From assembly GCA_964544935.1 (NCBI GenBank), contig CAZJDZ010000001.1:27018-91017 (forward strand): a DNA stretch of 64,000 nt, in the 5' to 3' direction. Shown one piece after another: positions 3,125-63,856 of this stretch. How positions within the stretch are numbered: position 1 is the stretch's first letter; each line of letters starts with the position of its first letter. A program made the translations under genes and the position numbers. This stretch comes from an uncultured Candidatus Saccharibacteria bacterium (GTDB lineage: Bacteria > Patescibacteriota > Minisyncoccia > Phycocordibacterales > UBA5272). The notes under the pieces are model-generated. The model saw only the letters and a program-made list of their open reading frames with translations. It did not search any database and was not told the DNA's origin.

Positions 3125-4477
3125 CTATTCTTCCAAAAATTTCTTTACTTTAGCTAAACCTGGAATTTTATTCAAATATTCCAAATCTTCTTCATTAAAA
3201 ATCTTCACAAGTTTTTTAGCAACGTCTTCTTTGTATTTACATAATTCAAGAGAATTCTTACCAGAAATAGCACTAATCACATCACTTTTTGCCATCCCAG
3301 CTCTGACATATTGATTCTCTGAGAAAATATTCAAAATATCTCCTCCAACTAAGGGATCATTACTCACCTCAGACCAATTATTAGGGAAAAATTTATCAAG
3401 CTTTCCCCTCATTATTTTTTGTTCTTTTATATCATTATTTAATGTATCAACAAGCAGAAAAACTTTTCCAGAATATGGGTAAAAATTATCATTCCCGCGT
3501 AAGTGCACAGAAAGAGACTCTGTAATAATTTTCATGCGAGAAACTTCAACTGAACCATCTCCTATACCTTTTAATTTATTAAGAAAAACTTTACCCGTAT
3601 CTACTCCAGATAATTCAAGATACTTAGATACAATCAGTCGATCAGAGCCTCCTTCAACTATTACTATTTTTTCTGGCAAGAATAAGTCTGCCAAAGAAAA
3701 ACCTAACTTGTCTATAATAATTTTTTTATACAAATCTTCACTGTTAGACATTACTTCAAATTCTGGTTTTCCATTTTTAACATCAACAATAAAATTATTT
3801 TCAGGTGTTTGTCTATTTATGAAATGAGGAGAGTGGGTAGCAATAACAATAAATTGATCTTTTGATTTTTCAAGCAAAACTTCATAAAGAAGTTTTTGAA
3901 CTGATGGTTCGAGTGAAATTTCAGGTTCATCTATAAAAATAACAGGGTAACCCGATGTTAGAGCTGCCATAATATGAAAAGCAGCACGAAGACCTGATCC
4001 ATCAAAAGACGAATTTAAATTTAATTCAGAATTTTTCCATTGTGACTCCTTACTAATATAATTTATTCCAAAAAATCTTTGTATAAGTTCTTTAAATTCT
4101 GGCTTTTGTGCAGTTTCGTTTTCAGTTAATAAAGTTGAAAAAAGATTTCTTGAGTATGCATACCAAACGGATGGTCTGTTGTCATTATTTTGTATATTAG
4201 CTATAGCTGCTGCCGTTGTTTGTAAAAGTGTTTGACCTCCTGTATTTTGACTACTTAAAATATCATCAACCCCTGTTCTTTCGGCGGGGATGTATATTAT
4301 CTTTCTATTTTTATGTGCCGTATGATTCATTTGACCGATCAAACTCTTAAGTACTGATGTTTTTCCTGAACTATTTTTGCCAGTCAAGACAAACAGACCA
4401 TTTTCAGGATATACACCATTAGCAAAAGGGAAATCGTAGCTTGTTAAAACTTTTCCACAAATTTGATTTATTAACAT
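3125..4477 (-). CDS. OLD-family ATP-dependent endonuclease (ABC-type ATPase fused to a TOPRIM domain)
   Basis: Walker A LTGKNSSGKTS; signature-like GSGLRAAFHIMAALT; Walker B VIFIDEPEISL; H-loop VIATHSP; then KIVIVEGGSDRLIV and VFLLVDTLNND, which are TOPRIM-like acidic motifs. Confidence 0.65.
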   Translation of the reverse strand: MLINQICGKVLTSYDFPFANGVYPENGLFVLTGKNSSGKTSVLKSLIGQMNHTAHKNRKIIYIPAERTGVDDILSSQNTGGQTLLQTTAAAIANIQNNDNRPSVWYAYSRNLFSTLLTENETAQKPEFKELIQRFFGINYISKESQWKNSELNLNSSFDGSGLRAAFHIMAALTSGYPVIFIDEPEISLEPSVQKLLYEVLLEKSKDQFIVIATHSPHFINRQTPENNFIVDVKNGKPEFEVMSNSEDLYKKIIIDKLGFSLADLFLPEKIVIVEGGSDRLIVSKYLELSGVDTGKVFLNKLKGIGDGSVEVSRMKIITESLSVHLRGNDNFYPYSGKVFLLVDTLNNDIKEQKIMRGKLDKFFPNNWSEVSNDPLVGGDILNIFSENQYVRAGMAKSDVISAISGKNSLELCKYKEDVAKKLVKIFNEEDLEYLNKIPGLAKVKKFLEE

Positions 4478-4574
4478 ATTTATAATTTAATTTTGCGGAG
4501 GCATATTCATAGTTGCGATTACGCTCCTTGAAATGCACTGCGCAAAATCTGGTCGCGAGTACGCTCGCGATTTT

Positions 4575-4667
4575 GCGGTGATTATGGGTTAAGTACCCAC
4601 AGGTCTTGACCCCATAAGGGTATTTTAGCATCTTTTTCGAGCTCTAAAATATGTATGTGGGTCGCTA
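4575..4667. repeat. copy A of a ~90-bp intergenic repeat family (GGTTAAGTACCCAC ... CCATAAGGGTATTT ... AAAATATGTATGTGGGTCGCTA)
   Basis: Near-identical blocks at 24222..24311 and 24828..24920. Contains a GTGGGT/ACCCAC hairpin. Confidence 0.7.
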
Positions 4668-4845
4668 TCCAAATGCCAATAAATGCCAAAATTCTGAACT
4701 TTTGAAAATATAAGGAATTCAGAGAAAAAGCTTTATTAATAAGGATATTGTGAAGATTTTTAGTAAAAATATGAATTTCATATTTGGCATTTTAACTTTT
4801 TGCCTGAAATTTCTTAACAACACCATAAAATGGTAAAATTTAGAA

Positions 4846-6009
4846 ATGATTAAGGATCTTAATAGTTACCTGACCGACCAAGAGTTCTTCACTTACGTGA
4901 AGTTCTTGGACTTGATCGTTGATAAGAACTATAAAGATCTTGATGATCATGAATTTGGAATACGAGATCTCAGCATTGGAAGTGAAAGCGTCTACCAAAC
5001 TTTTAAAAGAGCATTTGAATTTTTGGATCTCGTTGATCCATCAATAAAAATAGAGAGCTATAATTTGAAGGAAACAGAAGTTCGGTTTGAAATATCAAAT
5101 AGACCAAAAAATGAGCAAATCAATCTCAACAAAATAATAGATAAAATTCTTAAGGATAAATCGATCAAGTTTAGTGATGTTGGTGCCCTCTCTTGGGTAT
5201 GGTACGAAGTCTACAGTGCCGCACGATTTACTCCCGACACTTACACAATACCTCATACTGTTCGTGAAAAAATAGCTGATAACATTAACCAATACTTGGA
5301 TAACCTGATTAACAACAAGCTCGCTATTGTAAAAAAGAACTACTATAAGTTTGAGATTTTAAAACAGACCCTTATTCAAATTATTGAAGAAGACAAAATG
5401 ATTCCGCTTTACGGGACTAATTTCATTATCAAAAAAGGAATCGATGAAAACGGTAACGTAAAAGGCTTACCTGATTTTTGCATCCTTCAAACCGTCTATG
5501 CGCTAGAGAGACTTGGATACTTAAAGGTTGTAAAAGTGTGGGAAGATATTAAATATAAGTCTGAATACATCACATCCGATGAAAAAGATAAGACGCGATT
5601 TATCTGTGTAAATATCATTCTTGAAGACATATTCATTAAAGAGATTTACAATAAGTATAAGAAGGAGAATCCTAAAAATATCATCGAAAGTTTTGATGAG
5701 GCAAAAGGCATTCTTAAATTTGCAGGAGAAACCATAGAATTATCATCTAAAGGAAAAGAGACAGATGCTTCTCTCTTAATGAAAGCGTTGCTTAAAAATG
5801 ACGATGACGAATGGATGCACAACGATGAGATATTCCAAGTCTGGGGTTTCAATGAAAAAGACATCAAGAACGCAGCCAAAAACAAGATCTATTTTGCTGC
5901 ACAGAAAGTAAATAACAATGTTGCGATAAAAACAGGAATCGAAGATTTCCTTGATTTTACAACCACAAAAGCGCGTATCAATCCTCGTTACAAAAAAGTT
6001 GATGAATAA
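4846..6009 (+). CDS. hypothetical protein (387 aa), divergent from the OLD gene
   Basis: Long clean ORF, lysine-rich, with no recognisable motif. Confidence 0.55.
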   Translation: MIKDLNSYLTDQEFFTYVKFLDLIVDKNYKDLDDHEFGIRDLSIGSESVYQTFKRAFEFLDLVDPSIKIESYNLKETEVRFEISNRPKNEQINLNKIIDKILKDKSIKFSDVGALSWVWYEVYSAARFTPDTYTIPHTVREKIADNINQYLDNLINNKLAIVKKNYYKFEILKQTLIQIIEEDKMIPLYGTNFIIKKGIDENGNVKGLPDFCILQTVYALERLGYLKVVKVWEDIKYKSEYITSDEKDKTRFICVNIILEDIFIKEIYNKYKKENPKNIIESFDEAKGILKFAGETIELSSKGKETDASLLMKALLKNDDDEWMHNDEIFQVWGFNEKDIKNAAKNKIYFAAQKVNNNVAIKTGIEDFLDFTTTKARINPRYKKVDE

Positions 6010-6104
6010 TTGATAAACGTTCCGCCAATATTTATCAACACCTCCACCGTATCCTGAAGTCACACCCTTCGGGATGTTTTAATTGTAATAACAAAATAAC
6101 GTAT

Positions 6105-7397
6105 ATGGCTCAAACCATCGTGTGGAAGGAAGTGAAGGTAAAGGTAGCGGATCTCATCCCTGCCGATTACAACCCTAGAAAAATAAGTGCGAAGGAACGT
6201 GCAGAATTAACAACATCCGTAGAACAGTTCGGTCGTGTAGAGCCAGTTATCGTCAACACTGGCAAGCGTAAGAACTGTGTCATTGGTGGACATCAACGGC
6301 TTAAGATCTATGCCGATCTTGGTGTTACAGAAATAGAAGCAAAGGTACCAAGTCGTGAACTCACCGAAGATGAAGAAAAAGAACTCAATTTAAGACTCAA
6401 CAAAAATACTGGTTCATGGGACTTCGATAAGTTAGGAGAGTTTGATATGGATATGCTTCTTAATGTCGGTTTCGATGACGATGAATTGCAAGGCATGTTT
6501 GATGACGTTGATGTATCAGATGATGATTTTGACGTAGAGAAGGCTATTAAGGAAACCACGATGCCGAAAGTGAAGCTCGGCGAGATATGGGAACTTGGCG
6601 AACACAGATTGCTTGTTGGAAGTTCAACAGATGAGACTGCTGTCAGATTATTGATGGATAAGGATATGGCAGACATTGTGTATTGTGACCCACCATATAA
6701 CATCGGCTTGGACTATTCTAAAGGTCTTGGTAAGAATGAGAAGTACGGTGGGAGTTACTCAGGTAAGGATGATTCCAAAAAAGCGAAAGACTATGCGAAA
6801 TTCATGAATGACAGTATCTCTGTTGCTCTACAATTTGCAAAGCAAAGTGCTCACTTTTTCTACTGGTGTGATTCTACGAATATCGGACTCATTCAAGGAT
6901 TCTATGCGGACAACAAGATCATAAGTAGACGAGTGTGTATGTGGATCAAGAATAACCAGAACCCTACACCGAAAATTGCCTTCAACAAGGTGTATGAACC
7001 GTGTGTGTATGGCACGATTGGTACTCCACATCTCAACAAAGGGTTCCAAAATGCTAACGAAGTTCTAAACCAAGAAGTCGGTAGTGGTAACCAACTTCAC
7101 GACGAGATACTTGAAATGATAGACCTATGGATTGTGAAGCGTGATAGCACGAAAGAGTACATGCATCCGACACAGAAGCCTGTGAGCTTAAACGAGAAGC
7201 CATTTAAGCGTTGCTCTGCCCCTGGACAGATAATATTCTCAGGATTCGGTGGTAGTGGCAGTGATTTAATTGCGTGTGAACAACTGCATCGTAAGTGGCG
7301 TGGTGTAGAGCAAGACTTAATCTTCGCAACCATCATTATCGACAGATGGGAGAAATTTACTGGTAAGAAAGCAAAACTCATCTATGGTAGTAAATAA
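6105..7397 (+). CDS. ParB-like nuclease domain fused to an N4/N6 DNA methyltransferase
   Basis: N-terminal ParB/Srx motif (IGGHQRLKIY); methyltransferase motif IV VYCDPPYNIG; C-terminal motif I FSGFGGSGSDLIACEQLHRK (beta-class order). Confidence 0.8.
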   Translation: MAQTIVWKEVKVKVADLIPADYNPRKISAKERAELTTSVEQFGRVEPVIVNTGKRKNCVIGGHQRLKIYADLGVTEIEAKVPSRELTEDEEKELNLRLNKNTGSWDFDKLGEFDMDMLLNVGFDDDELQGMFDDVDVSDDDFDVEKAIKETTMPKVKLGEIWELGEHRLLVGSSTDETAVRLLMDKDMADIVYCDPPYNIGLDYSKGLGKNEKYGGSYSGKDDSKKAKDYAKFMNDSISVALQFAKQSAHFFYWCDSTNIGLIQGFYADNKIISRRVCMWIKNNQNPTPKIAFNKVYEPCVYGTIGTPHLNKGFQNANEVLNQEVGSGNQLHDEILEMIDLWIVKRDSTKEYMHPTQKPVSLNEKPFKRCSAPGQIIFSGFGGSGSDLIACEQLHRKWRGVEQDLIFATIIIDRWEKFTGKKAKLIYGSK

Positions 7398-21219: not shown

Positions 21220-21309
21220 TGGCGGAGGATGTGAGATTCGAACTCACGGACCTAATAAAAGGTCGACGGTTTAGTAAACCGTTGATTTAAGCCACTCATC
21301 CAATCCTCC
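21220..21309 (-). tRNA. type II tRNA, Ser-like paralog with anticodon loop UUACUAA (anticodon ACU as read)
   Basis: Manual fold: acceptor GGAGGAT/ATCCTCC; discriminator G; encoded CCA; long variable arm GACCT..AGGTC; T-arm GTGAG-TTCGAAT-CTCAC. It differs from tRNA-Ser(GCU) at position 34 (G to A). Confidence 0.6.
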
Positions 21310-25506: not shown

Positions 25507-25596
25507 TGGCGGAGACGAGAGGATTCGAACCTCCGAGGGATTTAACTCCCTGCCTCTTTAGCAAAGAGGTACGTTAGACCACTCTGACACGTCTCC
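25507..25596 (-). tRNA. tRNA-Ser(GCU), type II
   Basis: Manual fold: GGAGACG acceptor; anticodon arm CCTCT-TTGCTAA-AGAGG; long variable arm; T-loop TTCGAAT; discriminator G; CCA encoded. Confidence 0.85.
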
Positions 25597-29139: not shown

Positions 29140-29211
29140 GGCCTCATCGTCTATCGGTTAGGACACAGGCTTCTCATGCCTGGAAGCGGAGTTCGATTCT
29201 CCGTGAGGTCA
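29140..29211 (+). tRNA. tRNA-Glu(CUC)
   Basis: Manual fold: GGCCTCA acceptor; D-arm GTC..GAC; anticodon arm CAGGC-TTCTCAT-GCCTG; T-arm CGGAG-TTCGATT-CTCCG. Closely resembles E. coli tRNA-Glu. Confidence 0.75.
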
Positions 29212-47231: not shown

Positions 47232-47307
47232 TCTGTGCTCTCGGCAGGAATCGGACCCACATTAATCCCTTAGGACGGGACTGTTCTATCCATTGAACTA
47301 CGAGAGC
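47232..47307 (-). tRNA. tRNA-Arg(CCU)-like
   Basis: Manual fold: acceptor GCTCTCG/CGAGAGC; D-arm GTTC..GAAC with GG; anticodon loop GUCCUAA; T-arm GTGGG-TCCGATT-CCTGC. Atypical residues at positions 32 and 55. Confidence 0.5.
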
Positions 47308-47371
47308 GTCACGCTTGATTCTAACATATTGTGCTTTTGGTGACACTTTAAAATAGGATATACTGGTCACC

Positions 47372-47695: not shown

Positions 47696-47895
47696 CCTTA
47701 CTACACCACCGCGTTGAAGGCTGTTCCTTTTTATGCTAGAATTGAGAAATCAACAAAAAAGTTGAAGTTGTAGAATATACTGGGATAGCTCGAGAAGCTT
47801 GGCTTCGAAGATATCTGGAACCAGCAGGTGGAAGACGCAAGTTGTTAGATTGTTCAAGTGAAAATAAACAAAGTAGGCAGAAGAAATAAACATAT

Positions 47896-47968
47896 GCTGG
47901 GATAGCTCAGTTGGTAGAGCATTTGCCTGAAGAGCAAAGGGTCCCCAGTTCGAGCCTGGGTCCCAGCA
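47896..47968 (+). tRNA. tRNA-Phe(GAA)
   Basis: GCTGGGA acceptor; D-arm GCTCAGTTGGTAGAGC; anticodon arm TTTGC-CTGAAGA-GCAAA; T-arm GGGTC-CCCAG..; a long palindromic hairpin follows (47970..48022). Confidence 0.9.
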
Positions 47969-57095: not shown

Positions 57096-57596
57096 TTATA
57101 ATACAGCTCTTTCCTTTACAAAATCAGCAAGGTTATCAAAAATCATTCTAAATATAGAACCTATTTGCTTTATCTGTTCAAGAGTCACTCCGTTTTCTTT
57201 CAAGAAATAAATAACTATTCCGATAGCAACAAGCAAGAAAAAAAATGGAAGTATAGGGACATCTAATTCTACATGTTTAACTGGAGTTGGATTTTTTTTA
57301 AAAGTCTCCCCACCTACTTGAAAAGAAGTTGGTTGTTTATAGAGCGGTTCAGGTGGAATCTTGGTAGCAATCTCTTTCAAGGTTTCAGGACCACCAGAAA
57401 TAGTGTGGTATGAAGGGGTTGCTGTAGGGTCTCCTACTTGAGGAATCTCAGTGGTAAGTGGCGCAGGAGTACTAATCTCACCAATTACTTCTGATAATTG
57501 TTTGTCGAGAAGATTATTTTCTGTGCTATTAATTTCTACACTATCATTACTAGTAACTTCATTTACCACCTCTTCGACTACAACTTTTGGTTCCAT
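57096..57596 (-). CDS. hypothetical protein with C-terminal TM segment
   Basis: Pro/Thr-rich N-terminal part; TM ILPFFFLLVAIGIVIYFL. Confidence 0.45.
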   Translation of the reverse strand: MEPKVVVEEVVNEVTSNDSVEINSTENNLLDKQLSEVIGEISTPAPLTTEIPQVGDPTATPSYHTISGGPETLKEIATKIPPEPLYKQPTSFQVGGETFKKNPTPVKHVELDVPILPFFFLLVAIGIVIYFLKENGVTLEQIKQIGSIFRMIFDNLADFVKERAVL

Positions 57597-57652
57597 AATT
57601 AAAGGTAAGTATATCCTACTTTTTTAATTTGAAAAATAGTTATTTAAGATCT

Positions 57653-57976
57653 TCAACCGCCAATAGAAAACATATTTACATAACATGTTCCAAATCCAAC
57701 CAGTATTGATACTGCAAGGAAAAGTGCTGCAAACTTCATAAGATTCTTTCCTCCTCTATTAAAAGTAATAGCCCCAACTATGAGAAATAAAAAAGGAGAA
57801 AAGATTGCAAGAGGGGCACCAATATACCATAGAAAGACCCCCTGTTCAAAAATAAAGCTAGATAACGACGAAGCAATAAGAATAACCATTGTGGCTATAA
57901 AAATTATTTTTGGGATTTTTAGAGTATCTTTTTCTTTAATTGATTTAACTTCTGCTTGTATTATTTTTTCTTTCAT
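57653..57976 (-). CDS. small membrane protein, paralog 1 of a tandem triplet (C-terminal GxGTC(F/Y)VN motif)
   Basis: LIVGAITFNRGGKNLMKFAALFLAVSILVGFGTCYVNM. Confidence 0.5.
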   Translation of the reverse strand: MKEKIIQAEVKSIKEKDTLKIPKIIFIATMVILIASSLSSFIFEQGVFLWYIGAPLAIFSPFLFLIVGAITFNRGGKNLMKFAALFLAVSILVGFGTCYVNMFSIGG

Positions 57977-58021
57977 GCGTATTTATTTTTTACTAATAAT
58001 AGTATTAATAAAACAAATCGT

Positions 58022-58381
58022 CTATATTCCCCCAATATTTACAAAACAAGTCCCAGCACCAACAAGAGTAGTTACAAGAAAGAAGTGTCCTGCAAATTTT
58101 ATAAGACGACTACCTCCATTTTTATAAGTAATAGCACCTACTATTAAAAAAATAATCGTGAATAAAGTTGAAACCATTAGGGCAATAGCCCAGGAATTCA
58201 CCCCTCCACCTTGCATAAACAGCTGAACTATAACAGAATCAGATCCTAGTTCTAAATGTCGAATTATAAAACCTAACAACGAAGGAATGATAAAGACTGC
58301 TATCGTAATTTTAATCAAAAGTTTCCCAAACTTTTCCATCTTTGTTTCCACTATAGGTTCTTGTGTTGTATTTTCTTGCAT
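58022..58381 (-). CDS. small membrane protein, paralog 2
   Basis: MQENTTQEPIVETKMEKFGKLL... LIVGAITYKNGGSRLIKFAGHFFLVTTLVGAGTCFVNI. Confidence 0.55.
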   Translation of the reverse strand: MQENTTQEPIVETKMEKFGKLLIKITIAVFIIPSLLGFIIRHLELGSDSVIVQLFMQGGGVNSWAIALMVSTLFTIIFLIVGAITYKNGGSRLIKFAGHFFLVTTLVGAGTCFVNIGGI

Positions 58382-58476
58382 AGATATAGTATATCCTAAA
58401 CTTTTTCTTATGCGTATAAGAATTCCTGCTGCAAAGATTTATATATTCTAGAAAATTAGAAAACATATCCCAACCT

Positions 58477-58836
58477 CTAACAAGAAGGACACAAAATATC
58501 TACCGCGGAAATATTTACAAAACATGTTCCAGTTCCAACTACAAGTGTTGTTATAAAAAAAAGACCAGCAAATCTCATAAGACGACCACCTCCTTTTTTA
58601 TAGGTGATAGTCCCTACTATCAAAAATATAACAGAAAAAACAACAGAAACTGCTGCTGTAGTGAGGTAGGTACCAAGAATCAAATAATTCATTAATGATT
58701 GACTTCCAACCCCCATAGCAATCAAACCAATTAGTATTGAGATAACAGACACTGCTACCGTAACTTTTAATAAAAGTTTTGCAAACTTTTCCATCTTTGT
58801 TTCTACTATAGGTTCTTGTGTTATATTTTCTAGCAT
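58477..58836 (-). CDS. small membrane protein, paralog 3
   Basis: MLENITQEPIVETKMEKFAKLL... LIVGTITYKKGGGRLMRFAGLFFITTLVVGTGTCFVNI...CPSC. Confidence 0.55.
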   Translation of the reverse strand: MLENITQEPIVETKMEKFAKLLLKVTVAVSVISILIGLIAMGVGSQSLMNYLILGTYLTTAAVSVVFSVIFLIVGTITYKKGGGRLMRFAGLFFITTLVVGTGTCFVNISAVDILCPSC

Positions 58837-58874
58837 AGATATAAGTATATATCAAAATCTTTACTAAAAAGAAA

Positions 58875-59630
58875 CTATTTCTTAAAAAACTGCATAACTG
58901 TTTCTTTTTGCATATCAAAAAAGCTTTTTTGTTTATACCCCTGTACTCCAAAACCAGCCACATTTACTTTTTCGTTATTAGTATACGTAGAAAATATCCT
59001 GTCCCAAATAGAAAAGACTGCACCGAAATTATGACCCTGACTATATCTATCTTGATAATGATGAATTCTATGATTTCGTGGTGTTATAAGAAAAAGATCA
59101 CACCACTTTGGTAACTGTAAGTATGAAATGTGGCAAAAAAATTGATATGTCAATACAAAAAAATAAGCACTGATAATTGTATACGGAGAAATATGAAGAA
59201 AGACGAGAGGAATAAGCATCAGATAAATAGATGCTTGCCCTATCCAAGGCAGCATAAGTGCAAGAGCTAGATTATATGTAGTTCCAACATGGTGAATTTT
59301 ATGTATTGTAAATAGTTTTTTATTGCCATGATGCGCTCTATGGTAAAAATAGTACAAGATATCGATAAGTACAACTGTTATAATAATTTGACTAGGCACC
59401 TTACTCGGAACATCTCCCCATATGTGTGTATATATTTTTGTTGTTACAAAAAGAAATATAAGAACACTTATTGTTTCTGTAAAAATAAGTACGACTCCGT
59501 TATAAAGAGCGTCTTTTATTTCTGTTGTTGTATATCTATCATCATTTTTAATAATACTGTAGAAATATTCTACAAGTGTATAGACAACTGTTGAAAAAAA
59601 GAAAACAAGGGTCTTACCTAAAAATAACAT
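58875..59630 (-). CDS. fatty acid hydroxylase/sterol desaturase superfamily membrane enzyme
   Basis: His boxes HRAHH, HKIHH and HRIHH in a polytopic protein. Confidence 0.75.
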   Translation of the reverse strand: MLFLGKTLVFFFSTVVYTLVEYFYSIIKNDDRYTTTEIKDALYNGVVLIFTETISVLIFLFVTTKIYTHIWGDVPSKVPSQIIITVVLIDILYYFYHRAHHGNKKLFTIHKIHHVGTTYNLALALMLPWIGQASIYLMLIPLVFLHISPYTIISAYFFVLTYQFFCHISYLQLPKWCDLFLITPRNHRIHHYQDRYSQGHNFGAVFSIWDRIFSTYTNNEKVNVAGFGVQGYKQKSFFDMQKETVMQFFKK

Positions 59631-59742
59631 ATATTTAATTGCATTATAGTATACCTTGTATAGATGGTATTGGCATAAGAAATCCCCGCAAGCAAGCTTG
59701 CGGGGATGTGGCTATAGTAGCCAGAATTCAAACCTTGTTCAT

Positions 59743-61122
59743 TTACTTCGTACCGTAATAGTGACAGAAGCTATCCACCTCCCCCTCTGGCGTAAGCACA
59801 TGGGTACAACAGCTCGCGATACGAGTCCAATCCCATGTACGTACATCCATAAACGGCTTGATGAACACCATCTTGATGTCGGATTTTTTAACGCCAATTG
59901 CTGCAAGTTCAGCTTCCAGATTCACATAGTCACACCCACACGCTGCAAGTGTGTCGTCGACATCAAAATTCATCCGATTGGCGATGAACGGCGCGAACCT
60001 GCTCATGTCCACAAAATTCGACACCGGCATCCACACCCCATCCTTACGAACAAGGAAGCCAACTGAACCACAGTTTGGATCACTGCACGGAAGAGGTGTC
60101 CAAGACTTCATATCCATGACACCGTCGCGTGCAACACTGTGCACAATGTCTGCGACATTGATTGGAATCTCGAGCAACTTCTTCGCGTCATTCCGTCCAG
60201 AGATGAACTCTGGCTGAAAGACAACCCAGCGGATATTGTCATCTGTGAGCGCTCTTGCGACCGCAGTGTGACATTCAAACTTATTGTCATGGGATACCGT
60301 CATCACAAGGGCAACAGGCATGCCGTGCTTGGATGCGCTCAAGATTGCTCTTTCACGAACTTCTCGAAAATCTCCAGCACGTAACTCTTTCTGTCCATTC
60401 TCAACGTCACCATCGAACTGAAGGTAGACACTGAAGCTTCCACGCTTTACTGCCATCTCAAGATTGTGCATGAAAACAGGGTCTCCGAAGCGACTACCGT
60501 TGGTGTTGAGGAGTACATCCTTGATACCCTCCTGATCACGTAGCCAACGAACAATCTCAAACAGATCTGGATGAAGTGTTGGCTCACCACCAGAGAGTTG
60601 AATGATGTCGATAACCCCTCCCTGTTTATCAAGGACCATTTTGATCTGGCTCTTGAAATCTTCCAAAGAAAGGAAAGACTGTGAGCGTCCCGTTTTCGTC
60701 TGAGGACTATCTGCATAACATGTCGGACATGCAAGATTGCAATCATACACAATCTCTACCACCAATGTACAGGTGTGAAGCTGTGAAGCAGTGACAGCAT
60801 TCTCCCCAAGAGAAGACGTGCCGCAACCACTTGGCCCACAACCACACGCTTCACCTTCCTGTTTGAGAAAGTAAAAATTCGCATCACTTGAAAGACGTGA
60901 ACTCGTGCGACCGTGCTCCGGACAATGCTTCACCGCATATATACGAGCAGGTGTATCGTTTGACTTAAAGATCTCCGCACGACACCTTACCCCGCACTCA
61001 TTGCAACGTGACCATGTATCTGCAATACGTGACCCATTTCCACAAAAGTGGTCATATGTGAGCGCATTTGCACAACATGCGCCTTCACTTACCACAACTT
61101 CCTGAGTATACTTTGAACTCAT
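59743..61122 (-). CDS. radical SAM enzyme with Cys-rich N-terminal extension and C-terminal Cys cluster, in a ~52% GC island
   Basis: CNLACPTCY (CxxxCxxC) and SGGEPTLHPD; N-terminal CC..C..C..C..C.H cluster; C-terminal ACGCDY...SCCTH...C. Confidence 0.8.
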   Translation of the reverse strand: MSSKYTQEVVVSEGACCANALTYDHFCGNGSRIADTWSRCNECGVRCRAEIFKSNDTPARIYAVKHCPEHGRTSSRLSSDANFYFLKQEGEACGCGPSGCGTSSLGENAVTASQLHTCTLVVEIVYDCNLACPTCYADSPQTKTGRSQSFLSLEDFKSQIKMVLDKQGGVIDIIQLSGGEPTLHPDLFEIVRWLRDQEGIKDVLLNTNGSRFGDPVFMHNLEMAVKRGSFSVYLQFDGDVENGQKELRAGDFREVRERAILSASKHGMPVALVMTVSHDNKFECHTAVARALTDDNIRWVVFQPEFISGRNDAKKLLEIPINVADIVHSVARDGVMDMKSWTPLPCSDPNCGSVGFLVRKDGVWMPVSNFVDMSRFAPFIANRMNFDVDDTLAACGCDYVNLEAELAAIGVKKSDIKMVFIKPFMDVRTWDWTRIASCCTHVLTPEGEVDSFCHYYGTK

Positions 61123-61142
61123 GACACAACCCCTTTCGTAGG

Positions 61143-61844
61143 TTAGTTTGATTTGTACAATCCGTTTTTAATACTATCAAAGATATAGTAGAACACAAAC
61201 ATAAGACAACAAATCTGAATAGCAGAGAGGGATAGTACTATTGGTTGCGTGTCCTTCAAAAACTCAAAAATGAATCTCATACCAAAATAAATGATGATAA
61301 AAAGCCTAAAAATAAAGCCATTTTGAAATCTCTTATTTTTGACGAAATGATGAGCAAGTGGTAATAGTATTAAAAGTTCTATAATTTCGTACAATGGTAT
61401 TGGGTGACGATTAAAATCATCCCCTTGCTTGAAACACCATACATAATCACAAACACTTCCAATTGTTCCATCTGCTACGCCAGTAAACTGACATCCAATA
61501 CGCCCGATGATAATTGCAATAATGAGTGGCACCACAACCGTATCCCCTGTATTATTTTTGATACCAAGTAACTTCTTTGTAATCTCTGTTCCAAGAATCC
61601 CACCAGCAATACCACCTATGATCGTCTTGTTCAGGTAATAATAAAGCCATGTTGGGGGATGAAGAAAAAGATGAGGATCTTCAAGTGCTGCTAGTAATCG
61701 TGACCCGACAAGTGCTCCGATAAGCGCACCTAAGATATAAAAAATTTTCTTAGTATCATCAAGCTCTGATTTCTTATTCAAAGAATAATAAAGCTGCATC
61801 CCAATAAAGATGGAGAGATAGTCAGTAATGAGATGAACAGACAT
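61143..61844 (-). CDS. lgt: prolipoprotein diacylglyceryl transferase (Lgt)-like membrane protein
   Basis: IIGRIGCQFTGVADGTIG resembles the Lgt GRIGNF signature; polytopic. Confidence 0.55.
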   Translation of the reverse strand: MSVHLITDYLSIFIGMQLYYSLNKKSELDDTKKIFYILGALIGALVGSRLLAALEDPHLFLHPPTWLYYYLNKTIIGGIAGGILGTEITKKLLGIKNNTGDTVVVPLIIAIIIGRIGCQFTGVADGTIGSVCDYVWCFKQGDDFNRHPIPLYEIIELLILLPLAHHFVKNKRFQNGFIFRLFIIIYFGMRFIFEFLKDTQPIVLSLSAIQICCLMFVFYYIFDSIKNGLYKSN

Positions 61845-61858
61845 AGAAGATTACAATA

Positions 61859-63856
61859 CTACTTCCCTATCACTTCCTTCAGAAAGGCTTTTTGATTTGG
61901 TTCACGTCCTAGGAAATTCTTCATGAGTTTGATCTCATCCTCACTACTTCCCTTCTCAAGTACTTCTCTTCGCCACTTCATACCAACCTCAGTGTTTGTC
62001 ATAACATTCTTATTGCCTTTGGTCTTAAAACTTCCAAATGCATCACACGCATACACGAGCGCCCAGAGGTATGAGTAGTATCCAGCATCGTAGCCAACAA
62101 GATGACCAAATCCTGCAGGGAAGAGTGTCTCCTTCTCTGGAAGCTCTACATTGAAATACATCTTATTCATCTTACGATATGCGGCACGAGCATCCTTCAC
62201 TTTTCCTGTATGGAGATCAAGATCGAGTTTCCCTTGGATAAGTTGACGTGTATAAAAGTATGCATTCTGGAATGTCTTACCTTTGATAATTCTCTCAATC
62301 ATCGCATCATCCATCTGCTTTCCTGTCTCATAGTGACATGACAATTTCTTCATCACCTCTTTGTCCCAAACCCAGTTCTCCATAATCTGTGAAGGTGTCT
62401 CTACGAAGTCCCACGCAACATTTGCCCCAGCCTGTGACTCAAGACGTGCTCGTGAAAGCGTCATATGAAGTAGGTGACCAAATTCATGGAAAAGTGTCTC
62501 AACATCTGAAAGAGATAGGAGGGAAGGTACTTTTTTAGTTGGTGTAGGAAAATTACAAATCATACTTGCAAGTGGTGCGATATATTCATCAGTTCTATAC
62601 CCATGTTCATGTGGAACAATCACATCTACCATACATGCATGTCCATACTTCCCTTCTCGTGGGAATAGATCAAGTGTAAAGTAACCAACAAGAGTTCCAT
62701 CTTGATCATTGATCTGATACATCTTTGCATCCTTATGCCAGAGCGGAACAGAGTATTCTGCAATCACAATTCCGAAAAGATTCTCACAAAGAGTAAAGAG
62801 TTCTTTCTTTACATGTTCAAGGGGAAAGTATGCTCGCACTGTTTCAGGATCAAGATCATACAATTTCTTTTTGAGACTAGTCGCAACAAAGCTAATATCA
62901 TAATGTTCCAACTTCTTGATATCAAGAGTCTTAGCATGTGCTTGAAGTATTTTCACATCTTCTTTTGCAAGTGGAGCAAGTGTTTTGAGAAGTGAATTTT
63001 GAAAATCCTCTGCTGCTTTAGCTGTCTTTGCCATACGAGTCTCGACACGGAAATCAGCATGATGCTTGTATCCTAGGATAGTCGCAATCTCATGGCGAAG
63101 CTTTACTAGCTCTTCAATGATCTTAAGGTTTTTTGCACCCCCTTTCTTTAAATTCTTAAGAGATAATTCTTCACGTTTTTTTCTGTTGGTTGCTTCTGCT
63201 AGGAATGGAAAGATATGAGGGTACTGCAAAGAGACGATATATCTTCCATCAGTATGTTTTGGAAGCGTTGCAACAAAACGCGGAGAAAGCCCTGCAAGCT
63301 CTTCTTCTGTACAAAGAATGTAGTCTTGGTAGTCGTTAATATTTTTTCTAAAGGAAATAGAGAGTGTTGATGTTTTTTTAAGGAGAACCTTAAGACGCTT
63401 CTGCTTTTCTGTTGGTAAATCAAATCCCATACGGCGATACTCACGAAGTGTTTCTTCAAGAAGTTTGATATCTTCTTTACGAAGTGTTTTCTTCTCATCT
63501 GCAAAGTTGCCTTCATAGTACTCAACAAGGGAGATGTAGAGGTCGCGATCATACTCGATATCTACAAGTTTACTTGAGAGTTCTGTGGCAATCTCAGTTG
63601 CTGCATCACGCACTTCTTTCTTAGTTGATACTTCAGAAAGGAATCCCATTTTACTGAAGAAACTTTCAAAAGAATCATCACATCGTTCAAGTGCATACAG
63701 TGTATTTAAAAATGTGCGATTCTCAGGAAGAATCTTCTTTATCTCTCCATATACTTTTTTCTTGTGAACGATATACTCGTCAGCTTTTTTCTTCATCTGT
63801 GCCGGTGTCATTTTCACCCATGTAAAATCTTTTGTAGTAAGTGGCAGTGTTTTCAT
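61859..63856 (-). CDS. M3-family zinc oligoendopeptidase (thimet/oligopeptidase A-like)
   Basis: HEFGHLLH zinc-binding motif in a 665-aa protein. Confidence 0.8.
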   Translation of the reverse strand: MKTLPLTTKDFTWVKMTPAQMKKKADEYIVHKKKVYGEIKKILPENRTFLNTLYALERCDDSFESFFSKMGFLSEVSTKKEVRDAATEIATELSSKLVDIEYDRDLYISLVEYYEGNFADEKKTLRKEDIKLLEETLREYRRMGFDLPTEKQKRLKVLLKKTSTLSISFRKNINDYQDYILCTEEELAGLSPRFVATLPKHTDGRYIVSLQYPHIFPFLAEATNRKKREELSLKNLKKGGAKNLKIIEELVKLRHEIATILGYKHHADFRVETRMAKTAKAAEDFQNSLLKTLAPLAKEDVKILQAHAKTLDIKKLEHYDISFVATSLKKKLYDLDPETVRAYFPLEHVKKELFTLCENLFGIVIAEYSVPLWHKDAKMYQINDQDGTLVGYFTLDLFPREGKYGHACMVDVIVPHEHGYRTDEYIAPLASMICNFPTPTKKVPSLLSLSDVETLFHEFGHLLHMTLSRARLESQAGANVAWDFVETPSQIMENWVWDKEVMKKLSCHYETGKQMDDAMIERIIKGKTFQNAYFYTRQLIQGKLDLDLHTGKVKDARAAYRKMNKMYFNVELPEKETLFPAGFGHLVGYDAGYYSYLWALVYACDAFGSFKTKGNKNVMTNTEVGMKWRREVLEKGSSEDEIKLMKNFLGREPNQKAFLKEVIGK

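Follow-up and report, generated by a model that had tools for sequence, protein, structure and literature searches.

What function could hold together a gene resembling that of the lipoprotein transferase Lgt, a gene for a radical S-adenosylmethionine (SAM) enzyme, and a tandem series of genes for very small membrane proteins? The question is raised by a 64-kb stretch of DNA from an uncultured Candidatus Saccharibacteria bacterium, a member of the Candidate Phyla Radiation (CPR), which we refer to as the window (contig CAZJDZ010000001.1, positions 27,018 to 91,017 of the forward strand), and in which these genes stand together with one for a putative fatty-acid hydroxylase. A first-pass annotation of the locus had suggested either a lipid or lipoprotein modification pathway or a radical-SAM-mediated modification of the small proteins. 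We find that the core unit consists of an Lgt paralog, a radical SAM enzyme, and a small Cys-tailed membrane protein, and that this unit is conserved across phyla. Judging from sequence and from analogy with Lgt, we give a probability of roughly 0.42 to the reading in which the small proteins are dedicated substrates that would be lipidated on cysteine by the Lgt paralog, with the radical SAM enzyme, which resembles tetraether synthase (Tes), acting on the lipid tails. The idea that the small proteins are modified gains strong comparative support, whereas the hydroxylase, which had been counted as part of the pathway, does not belong to the core.

A three-gene unit across phyla

Our comparison covers 85 loci that carry the radical SAM gene (labelled L001, etc.). 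Homologs of the enzyme are common in the CPR (58–77% identity), and those of Verrucomicrobiota, Planctomycetota, Bdellovibrionota, and others share about 41% identity with it; the related loci span these three phyla, the Mariprofundaceae (Proteobacteria), and the CPR. Conservation of the genomic context, which had been named as a check on the proposed pathway, is indeed seen: in 73 of the 85 loci the radical SAM gene shares its strand with an Lgt-like gene, and the two genes overlap or are spaced by at most 100 nt in 50 of these 73 pairs. Seven of the 12 loci that have no Lgt-like gene offer less than 1.2 kb of downstream sequence. Apparent fusions of the two genes into a single open reading frame (ORF; L074, L082, and others) were rejected as artefacts of choosing the longest ORF in high-GC DNA. 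A plasmid search added a remote radical SAM branch (26–28% identity) in two cultured Bacteroidota, which have the same triad arrangement with overlapping start and stop codons, and whose three genes are labelled by PGAP as 'prolipoprotein diacylglyceryl transferase family protein', 'radical SAM protein', and 'hypothetical protein'. Same-strand adjacency is seen in at least six phyla, in two different gene orders, and in hybrid combinations. No Pfam or NCBIfam model for the cassette was found, and the searchable literature, which did not cover the description that defines the curated radical SAM family TrsS, held no prior account of an Lgt-radical SAM cassette, which is apparently undescribed.

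The association has its limits within the superfamily, as a branch on Mycolicibacterium plasmids has a methyltransferase as the partner of the radical SAM enzyme instead of Lgt, from which it follows that the link to Lgt is a property of certain branches and not of the whole superfamily. On the Mycolicibacterium vanbaalenii plasmid (L091, positions 3294-7324), a DVU_1556-family methyltransferase is coupled to the radical SAM gene, with CcdA and a disulfide oxidoreductase nearby and no Lgt-like gene; this arrangement is a different, likewise uncharacterised cassette.

The third component of the unit is made up of small membrane proteins. Those of the window, A, B, and C, are, by pairwise comparison of their sequences, paralogs far beyond chance: B and C share 53% identity over their full length (E 6e-40), with the N-termini MQENTTQEPIVETKMEKF and MLENITQEPIVETKMEKF, A and C share 41% identity across the C-terminal 56 residues (E 5e-15), and all three have in common the motif FLIVG(A/T)IT..GG..L..FA...VGxGTC(F/Y)VN. 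These comparisons bear out the first-pass description of three tandem paralogs with near-identical N-termini in two of them and a common C-terminal block. Its remark that the family is not a recognised one holds as well, with no match, and no known domain of unknown function, found in Pfam or NCBIfam for A, B, and C or for ten counterparts from other phyla. Unlike A and B, C runs on at its C-terminus into an extra stretch that closes with a second Cys pair (...DILCPSC). A word-index search returned eight relatives of the window proteins, and an exhaustive hidden Markov model (HMM) search 13 among 1.84 billion representative proteins; all those that could be placed adjoin a radical SAM gene (L005, L087/88, L089, and L090). 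At L090, a hydroxylase and a small protein appeared to occur without the radical SAM gene, a case that was set aside when the contig proved to begin inside that gene.

Between phyla, sequence homology of the small proteins is undetectable by both word-index and exhaustive HMM searches, and we therefore used an architecture-based test with in-locus controls. Neighbour clustering around the enzyme pair recovered families of small membrane proteins of about 60–190 aa, encoded on the same strand and often in tandem, with four copies in L051, two each in L028 and L008, three in the window, and four in the sister genome. All have the same kind of ending: for example, the window has LVGAGTCFVN, other CPR have IGFGSC and VGFGTC, Verrucomicrobiota W[FIV]GSC and LFAACLIDP, Planctomycetota VGAC and FGAC, and Bacteroidota FVIG(A/T)G(V/I)CGS. 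The Planctomycetota proteins (L059, L068, L075, L078, L081) also bear an N-terminal CxxC...CxxC zinc-ribbon that is absent in the other phyla. An ORF was scored as a transmembrane-cysteine (TM-Cys) ORF when a Cys follows an uncharged hydrophobic 12-mer and is itself followed by at most 20 residues, a filter that was loosened after a stricter first version of the motif had missed known cases. So defined, TM-Cys ORFs make up 100 of 755 nearby same-strand ORFs versus 43 of 2459 other ORFs in the same loci (odds ratio 8.6, p 2e-33), and 86 of 121 versus 6 of 57 when only ORFs with at least two hydrophobic segments are considered (odds ratio 21, p 8e-15). At least one is present in 60 of the 85 loci and at least two in 24, and of the 20 loci in which the radical SAM and Lgt genes stand 0.3–2 kb apart, 14 have a TM-Cys ORF between the two.

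In 68 of 94 cases a G, A, S, or T directly precedes the Cys, position -2 is mostly G or A, position -3 mostly F, I, or L, and the tail past the Cys comprises 5–16 residues (median 8). At least two K/R residues stand in the loop ahead of the last helix in 92%, the uncharged run before the Cys has a median length of 22, and three hydrophobic segments are found in 56 of 94. L003, L007, and L008 carry the Cys motif on the first helix, and 50–77 residues come after it. For B, structure prediction, which had been put forward as a means of placing the triplet, yielded three helices (14–42, 50–86, and 90–118) with Cys112 near the end of the third, at the low confidence of an AlphaFold (AF2) model with a predicted local distance difference test score (pLDDT) of 64. 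The shared geometry of a basic loop, an in-to-out helix, and small residues before a Cys is, by analogy, that of a lipoprotein signal peptide and its lipobox, placed C-terminally.

The small genes are also dynamic, in that they diverge fast, gain and lose copies between near-identical genomes, and cannot be aligned between phyla. The sister genome L005 (7647-7973, 8001-8408) has a fourth paralog of 135 aa in which the Cys is replaced (GTGISF), and the tail of window copy A (FSIGG) is that of this Cys-less paralog, which suggests recombination between tandem copies, as if one gene had been deleted. The small genes behave as substrate or precursor genes, for which copy number variation, recombination, and Cys loss are typical.

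The radical SAM enzyme and the Lgt paralog

The radical SAM protein of the window matches PF04055 (E 4.7e-15) and, at its N-terminus, the PF23545 'HMPTM' zinc ribbon (36.7 bits versus a cut-off of 27). For all cassette radical SAM proteins the best-scoring curated family is TrsS (NF045646), with 166 bits for the window protein, 216 bits for that of Verrucomicrobia, and 328–341 bits for those of Bacteroidota, all under the cut-off of 490 bits; against the Tes equivalog (NF045702), the window protein scores 143 bits, which does not reach the cut-off of 450, and its Verrucomicrobia and Bacteroidota relatives 155 and 285–305 bits, respectively. By these scores the enzyme is a member of the Tes/TrsS superfamily, yet of neither curated family, and unlike TrsS it has no selenocysteine. 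The earlier concern that it might be a housekeeping enzyme such as HemN/HemW or MiaB is not borne out, as housekeeping families (MoaA among them) match the core only, at about 40 bits. A SPASM/twitch maturase of peptides synthesised ribosomally and modified after translation (RiPPs) was rejected likewise, since SPASM families hit only the core (about residues 110–310), with 29–37 bits versus cut-offs of 400–850.

The only significant full-length relative of the window enzyme in the PDB, by sequence, is GDGT-MAS (7TOL; E 4e-30, 26% identity). An AF2 model built on 48 homologs (pLDDT 84.9) gave the same result in Foldseek, where 7TOL/7TOM align over the whole chain (E 5.6e-29, TM-score 0.72, 493 columns); the next match, SkfB, covers the core only (TM-score 0.38), and SkfB, SuiB, and CteB align across about 200–330 columns only, with TM-scores of 0.34–0.38. 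GDGT-MAS, the archaeal tetraether lipid synthase and the MJ0619 protein formerly annotated 'HMPTM', is a lipid-binding enzyme that activates and couples the terminal carbons of lipid tails and contains three [4Fe-4S] clusters and a rubredoxin-like iron, whose motif in 7TOL is C9X2C12X20C33X2H36 (PMC9433317). In the window enzyme, the radical SAM cluster motif C128-X3-C132-X2-C135 is invariant among the 48 homologs, as are C40, C43, and C67 of a rubredoxin-like CX2C..CX2H site, the His of which (H70) lies in a CPEHG motif. The C-terminal cysteines C346, C351, C395, C397, C438, C439, and C453 are invariant or nearly so, and C438, C439, and C453 align to the CC...C of 7TOL. Closer to the N-terminus, a CxCx4C loop (C93, C95, C100) is followed by H116/C118, of which only C100 and C118 are at least 90% conserved, in a region of pLDDT below 50. 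The extra N- and C-terminal Cys clusters had been taken for possible auxiliary metal sites of either the SPASM/twitch or another fold; as far as sequence and model tell, they are sites of the GDGT-MAS/Tes type, with a rubredoxin-like site, a C-terminal cluster domain, and a candidate N-terminal one, and not of the SPASM/twitch type.

The likeness to GDGT-MAS/Tes extends over the full-length fold, the CX3CX2C and rubredoxin-like motifs, the Cys-bearing C-terminal auxiliary domain, with a putative counterpart at the N-terminus, and the C-terminal CC...FC motif. The window enzyme differs in its family-invariant extra cysteines C346, C395, and C397, in its bacterial (CPR) host with ester-type, probably scavenged lipids, and in having an Lgt paralog and small Cys-tailed proteins as partners, a pairing unreported for Tes. 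Bacterial Tes homologs have been catalogued by the hundreds, and we know of none with a demonstrated function. Published counts of them come with the proposal, for which functional proof is not given, that they make membrane-spanning lipids, and do not mention an Lgt partner (PMC8941075, PMC11868695, PMC13459092). Mss of Thermotoga (PMC13159169) and the bacterial Tes homologs proposed for glycerol dialkyl glycerol tetraethers of the branched type (brGDGTs) resemble the window enzyme as bacterial radical SAM enzymes for which the coupling of lipid tails has been shown or proposed; Mss belongs to a different radical SAM family, and for neither is there a report of an Lgt paralog or other protein as partner.

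The Lgt-like protein, rightly so named in the first-pass annotation, has the PF01790 fold (80.9 bits versus a cut-off of 24.9, 1e-22) and turns out to be divergent, falling far under every lgt equivalog cut-off: against TIGR00544 the window protein scores 34.2 bits and its Verrucomicrobia counterpart 28.9 bits, versus a cut-off of 118.9. Alignment of the paralog family to E. coli Lgt (5AZB) with hhalign has a probability of 98.6%, and 64 members were aligned to E. coli Lgt, the sequence of which was checked against 5AZB. R143, G154, R239, and E243 (R115, G126, R190, and E194 in the window) are kept in 63–64 of the 64 members, Y235 (Y186) in 62, and D129 is conserved; the five residues with window numbers are those that bind phosphatidylglycerol or take part in catalysis. 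Six residues are absolutely required in E. coli Lgt, namely Y26, H103, R143, N146, G154, and R239 (PMC13251419). Among these, N146 is replaced by Cys in all 64 paralogs (C118 in the window), position 103 is I, L, T, or M and never His (I76), and position 26 is Tyr in 52 of 64 and His in the window (H4) and all nine CPR members. Position 151 is Cys in 55 of 64 and Val in the CPR, and the periplasmic head domain is mostly gone, the region corresponding to E. coli residues of about 155–190 being mainly gap (233 versus 291 aa). Such substitutions have precedents: N146C and E151C/D occur in 'distantly related' Lgt proteins (PMC13251419, 2026), M. smegmatis MSMEG_5408 has Y26H and N146C, as does the window paralog, and a Leptospira interrogans Lgt with N146C partly complements E. 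coli, all of these N146C variants having been noted without gene context (PMC13251419). Going by the residues kept, the Lgt paralog probably still binds a phosphoglycerolipid and may still transfer the lipid moiety, though it is not a canonical Lgt, from which it also differs in being dedicated to a cassette with a radical SAM enzyme.

The two enzymes have discordant affinities in the CPR, as seen when the window was compared with loci L001, L003, L058, L004, L017, L092, and L093. CPR Lgt paralogs share 38–44% identity (150–190 bits) with the Bacteroidota type versus 26–31% (60–76 bits) with the Verrucomicrobia type, and the CPR gene order follows the Bacteroidota pattern. CPR radical SAM proteins share 40–54% identity with the Verrucomicrobia/Bdellovibrionota type versus 25–28% with the Bacteroidota type, and that of L058 is 54% identical to Verrucomicrobia versus 38% to other CPR. 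The radical SAM gene of the window is GC-rich, as noted at first sight, with a GC content of 0.48 versus 0.30–0.40 in its surroundings and a GC content at third codon positions (GC3) of 0.47 versus 0.20–0.34 in all neighbour genes; its relative in L087 (77% identity) also has a high GC3 (0.43), that in L001 does not (0.18). The suggestion that the gene is foreign therefore stands in part. Its GC3 and the clash of affinity with its Lgt partner point to xenologous replacement, whereas the wide distribution and conserved synteny of the family in the CPR, together with the raised GC3 of its relative in L087, lead us to conclude from the sequences that it is not recently foreign. It appears to be an older replacement within an existing cassette, from a Verrucomicrobia-type lineage, and replacement possibly took place more than once. 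Such hybrid CPR cassettes indicate that function, and not descent alone, keeps the pair together, and the replacement implies that the two radical SAM branches would be functionally interchangeable with the Lgt partner.

A proposed lipidation and its alternatives

In the reading we prefer, the small protein would have its N-terminus inside, a K/R-rich cytoplasmic loop, and a final in-to-out helix of about 22 uncharged residues, which would place a lipobox-like [FIL][GA][GA/S/T]-Cys at the outer face, with a tail of about eight residues. The Lgt paralog would move the glyceryl-lipid moiety of a phospholipid onto this Cys at the outer membrane face, on the model of canonical Lgt, which acts on the lipobox Cys after a signal-peptide helix. 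The Tes-like enzyme would direct 5'-deoxyadenosyl radical chemistry at unactivated carbons of the lipid tails, either in the donor phospholipid beforehand or in the protein-bound lipid, and the tails would end up cross-linked into a macrocyclic or membrane-spanning anchor, or otherwise functionalised. In the CPR sub-clade of the window, the substrate gene would have been multiplied (three copies in the window and four in the sister genome, against a range of one to four over all cassettes) and the hydroxylase added for tailoring. The most specific version of the product, a protein-bound macrocyclic or membrane-spanning lipid in which the Cys is S-glyceryl-lipidated and the tail termini are joined within the anchor or across leaflets, we regard as unlikely on what the sequences suggest.

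Two known systems bear on this proposal. Compared as sequences, the lipobox of Lgt substrates reads [LVI][ASTVI][GAS]C and that of the predicted substrates [FIL][GA][GAST]-C after an uncharged helix of about 22 residues; both have a helix and then a small-residue-Cys motif, and the putative lipobox differs in ending the last helix of a polytopic mini-protein, not an N-terminal signal peptide. The MYXO-CTERM/myxosortase system likewise has an invariant Cys in the C-terminal region adjoining a transmembrane helix, which is predicted to be lipidated by a postulated 'Lgt-like' acyltransferase (PMC11980579). There, the order is Cys motif, helix, and Arg-rich tail, carried by large secreted proteins with a CAAX-type protease as partner, whereas in the cassette it is basic loop, helix, Cys, and short uncharged tail, on mini-proteins with no sortase-like protease.

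Several observations weigh against the proposed lipidation. Five loci with full flanks have no Lgt-like gene within 6 kb, 25 of the 85 loci have no TM-Cys ORF by the criterion used, and some of the paralogs (L005 s135, L028, L048) have no Cys. The -3 position does not show the canonical preference for Leu, the window motif being GxGTC. The topology rests on crude hydropathy and the low-confidence model of B. The radical SAM enzyme is predicted to be cytoplasmic and the Cys to lie at the outer face, which would call for lipid flipping or a way to reach it across the bilayer. The window also has a terminator-like hairpin that divides the radical SAM gene from the hydroxylase and small genes. With three of the six E. 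coli-essential residues changed in the window paralog (Y26H, H103I, N146C) and the head domain missing, its activity as a transferase is not assured.

The main rival, which we hold to be possible though doubtful, is a pathway to a free lipid, in which the Tes-like enzyme and the Lgt paralog would together make a modified membrane lipid, be it tail-coupled, macrocyclic, or membrane-spanning glycerolipids derived from phosphatidylglycerol or, in the CPR, remodelled scavenged lipids. The small proteins would then be accessory subunits and not substrates, serving, for instance, to anchor the soluble radical SAM enzyme at the membrane or as a scaffold that recruits it, with a Cys that is structural, redox-active, or metal-binding; the conserved cytoplasmic loop block FLIVGAITYKKGG of the window family would offer a possible docking site. 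GDGT-MAS itself works on free lipids and co-purifies with E. coli phospholipids (PMC9433317), membrane-spanning lipids have been proposed as the product of bacterial Tes homologs (PMC8941075), the altered catalytic residues of the Lgt paralog could mean an altered reaction, and the 25 loci without a nearby TM-Cys ORF also speak for this pathway. Subunits, however, are usually conserved and single-copy, whereas the small proteins are unalignable, form arrays of 2–4, and are gained and lost; what is conserved in them is the signal-peptide-like geometry and the small-residue-Cys motif, which is the logic of substrate recognition by Lgt.

If the small proteins are substrates, they might instead be precursors of a RiPP-like lipopeptide, with the short tail as the product, an alternative that we consider quite unlikely. 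The Cys would again be lipidated by the Lgt paralog, the radical SAM enzyme would modify the peptide or form a lipid-Cys or other cross-link, and a cut before the Cys, by signal peptidase II or an M3 peptidase, would free a lipopeptide of 5–16 residues for the envelope or for export. In the Lgt/LspA pathway, LspA cleaves the lipoprotein signal peptide before the lipobox Cys, and the helix with its lipobox-like motif resembles such a signal peptide. Tandem, variable precursors are a hallmark of RiPPs, the tail after the Cys is short, and four CPR loci have an M3 oligopeptidase gene directly beside the cassette. The cassette also shares with radical SAM RiPP systems (sactipeptide and ranthipeptide maturases) its tandem, diverging small genes, a Cys motif, and an adjacent radical SAM gene. 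It differs from them in that the radical SAM enzyme has neither a SPASM/twitch nor a RiPP-recognition domain, its sole full-length structural relative being a lipid-modifying enzyme, and in that the putative precursors are polytopic. Moreover, outside one CPR sub-clade the cassette has no conserved protease, LspA, or exporter, and in the three loci with the Cys motif on the first helix, 50–77 residues follow it.

That there is no functional unit at all, with chance or local synteny bringing together a housekeeping lgt and an unrelated lineage-specific triplet, is already disfavoured and highly improbable. In its favour, no canonical lgt or lspA was found in the 64-kb window, so that the Lgt-like gene could in principle be the only copy, a terminator-like hairpin divides the region, and the window small-protein family is tiny (13 relatives). 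Against it, the window covers only part of the genome, the Lgt-like protein is far under the lgt equivalog cut-offs and without residues essential in E. coli, and same-strand adjacency across phyla, gene orders, and hybrids comes with strong enrichment of TM-Cys ORFs.

On the preferred reading, the cassette combines known kinds of activity, namely Lgt-type lipidation and Tes-type radical chemistry on lipids, and there is a substantial chance of finding chemistry that is itself new. One large branch of bacterial Tes homologs is locked to a divergent Lgt and small Cys-tailed membrane proteins, which gives a testable hypothesis for bacterial Tes homologs, for the N146C 'second Lgt' class, and for what may be a new type of protein lipidation. 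Several carriers are in culture (Roseibacillus persicicus, R. ishigakijimensis, Verrucomicrobium sp. BvORR106, Persicobacter psychrovividus, and Chondrinema litorale), which makes experimental testing feasible. In Persicobacter and Chondrinema the three-gene unit encodes the Lgt paralog, the radical SAM enzyme, and a protein of 59–64 aa. CPR bacteria cannot synthesise their own lipids, and a conserved cassette that remodels lipids or lipoproteins is relevant to the way in which their envelope is made. A protein-bound, tail-coupled lipid, if true, would be the first case of tetraether-synthase chemistry on a lipoprotein and the first in bacteria, and would give the CPR a route to remodel scavenged host lipids. 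In environmental surveys, caution is due, as a bacterial Tes homolog may not always be a marker of brGDGT production.

The window locus, its accessory genes and neighbours

The six ORFs of the locus are all present and co-directional on the minus strand, as first described. Their coordinates and those of adjoining features are collected in Table 1.

Table 1. Genes and candidate signals of the cassette region, given as positions in the 64-kb window
Feature	Position	Strand	Remarks
166-aa single-transmembrane protein	57096-57596	-	cassette membership uncertain; N-terminal YHTISGGPETL motif
Small membrane protein A	57653-57976	-	107 aa; C-terminal block LVGFGTCYVNMFSIGG
Small membrane protein B	58022-58381	-	119 aa; loop YKNGGSRLIK, last helix end LVGAGTC112, tail FVNIGGI
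Small membrane protein C	58477-58836	-	119 aa; three predicted transmembrane helices, basic loop KKGGGRLMR, VVGTGTC, tail FVNISAVDILCPSC
Membrane protein of the di-iron fatty-acid hydroxylase/desaturase superfamily	58875-59630	-	251 aa; PF04116, three His boxes
Promoter-like site ATGCCA-17-TATACT	59648-59676	-	consensus scan only; just upstream of hydroxylase start
GC-rich terminator-like hairpin, 11 pairs	59682-59707	-	consensus scan only; directly past radical SAM stop codon
Radical SAM enzyme, GDGT-MAS/Tes fold	59743-61122	-	459 aa; PF04055 + PF23545
Divergent Lgt paralog	61143-61844	-	233 aa; PF01790
M3 oligopeptidase	61859-63856	-	PF01432 1e-118; cassette membership uncertain

The hairpin past the radical SAM stop codon and the promoter-like site ahead of the hydroxylase point to two possible transcription units, and the Lgt-radical SAM pair and the hydroxylase with the small genes may be separate transcripts. 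The assignment of the hydroxylase to the tri-His-box fatty acid hydroxylases/desaturases is upheld by PF04116 (75.9 bits versus a cut-off of 31, 5e-21) and by the His boxes HRAHH, HKIHH, and HRIHH; its match to the OlsE equivalog is weak (59 bits versus a cut-off of 475). The gene recurs only in L005, L087/88, and L090, always beside a small Cys-tailed gene, and is absent from the other 80+ loci, and as a core component it was rejected on account of this confinement to one narrow CPR sub-clade. It is plausibly an accessory, likely a tailoring enzyme.

The M3 oligopeptidase gene lies upstream of the Lgt paralog at a distance of 14 nt, and its synteny is confined to the CPR loci L001, L005, and L089. 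E. coli oligopeptidase A, a member of the same family, degrades cleaved lipoprotein signal peptides, and by this analogy a functional link to the cassette is possible. On the other flank, the 166-aa protein has one transmembrane helix and no Cys motif, and shares its YHTISGGPETL motif with the Cys-tailed proteins p179 of L089 (4719-5258) and p185 of L001 (4716-5273).

Across the whole 64-kb window, Rfam detected five tRNA genes (21223-21309, 25510-25596, 29140-29211, 47236-47307, and 47896-47968) and no riboswitch or other structured RNA besides them. The short element TAGGATATACT occurs at 57608-57618 (-), 58388-58398 (-), 47354-47364 (+), and 47771-47781 (+), two of these copies standing about 6–11 nt upstream of the start codons (ATG) of B and the 166-aa protein and others close to tRNA genes; its occurrence at the latter led us to reject it as a cassette-specific element. 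From its sequence and placement it looks like a genome-wide -10-type element, which would give very short or absent leaders.

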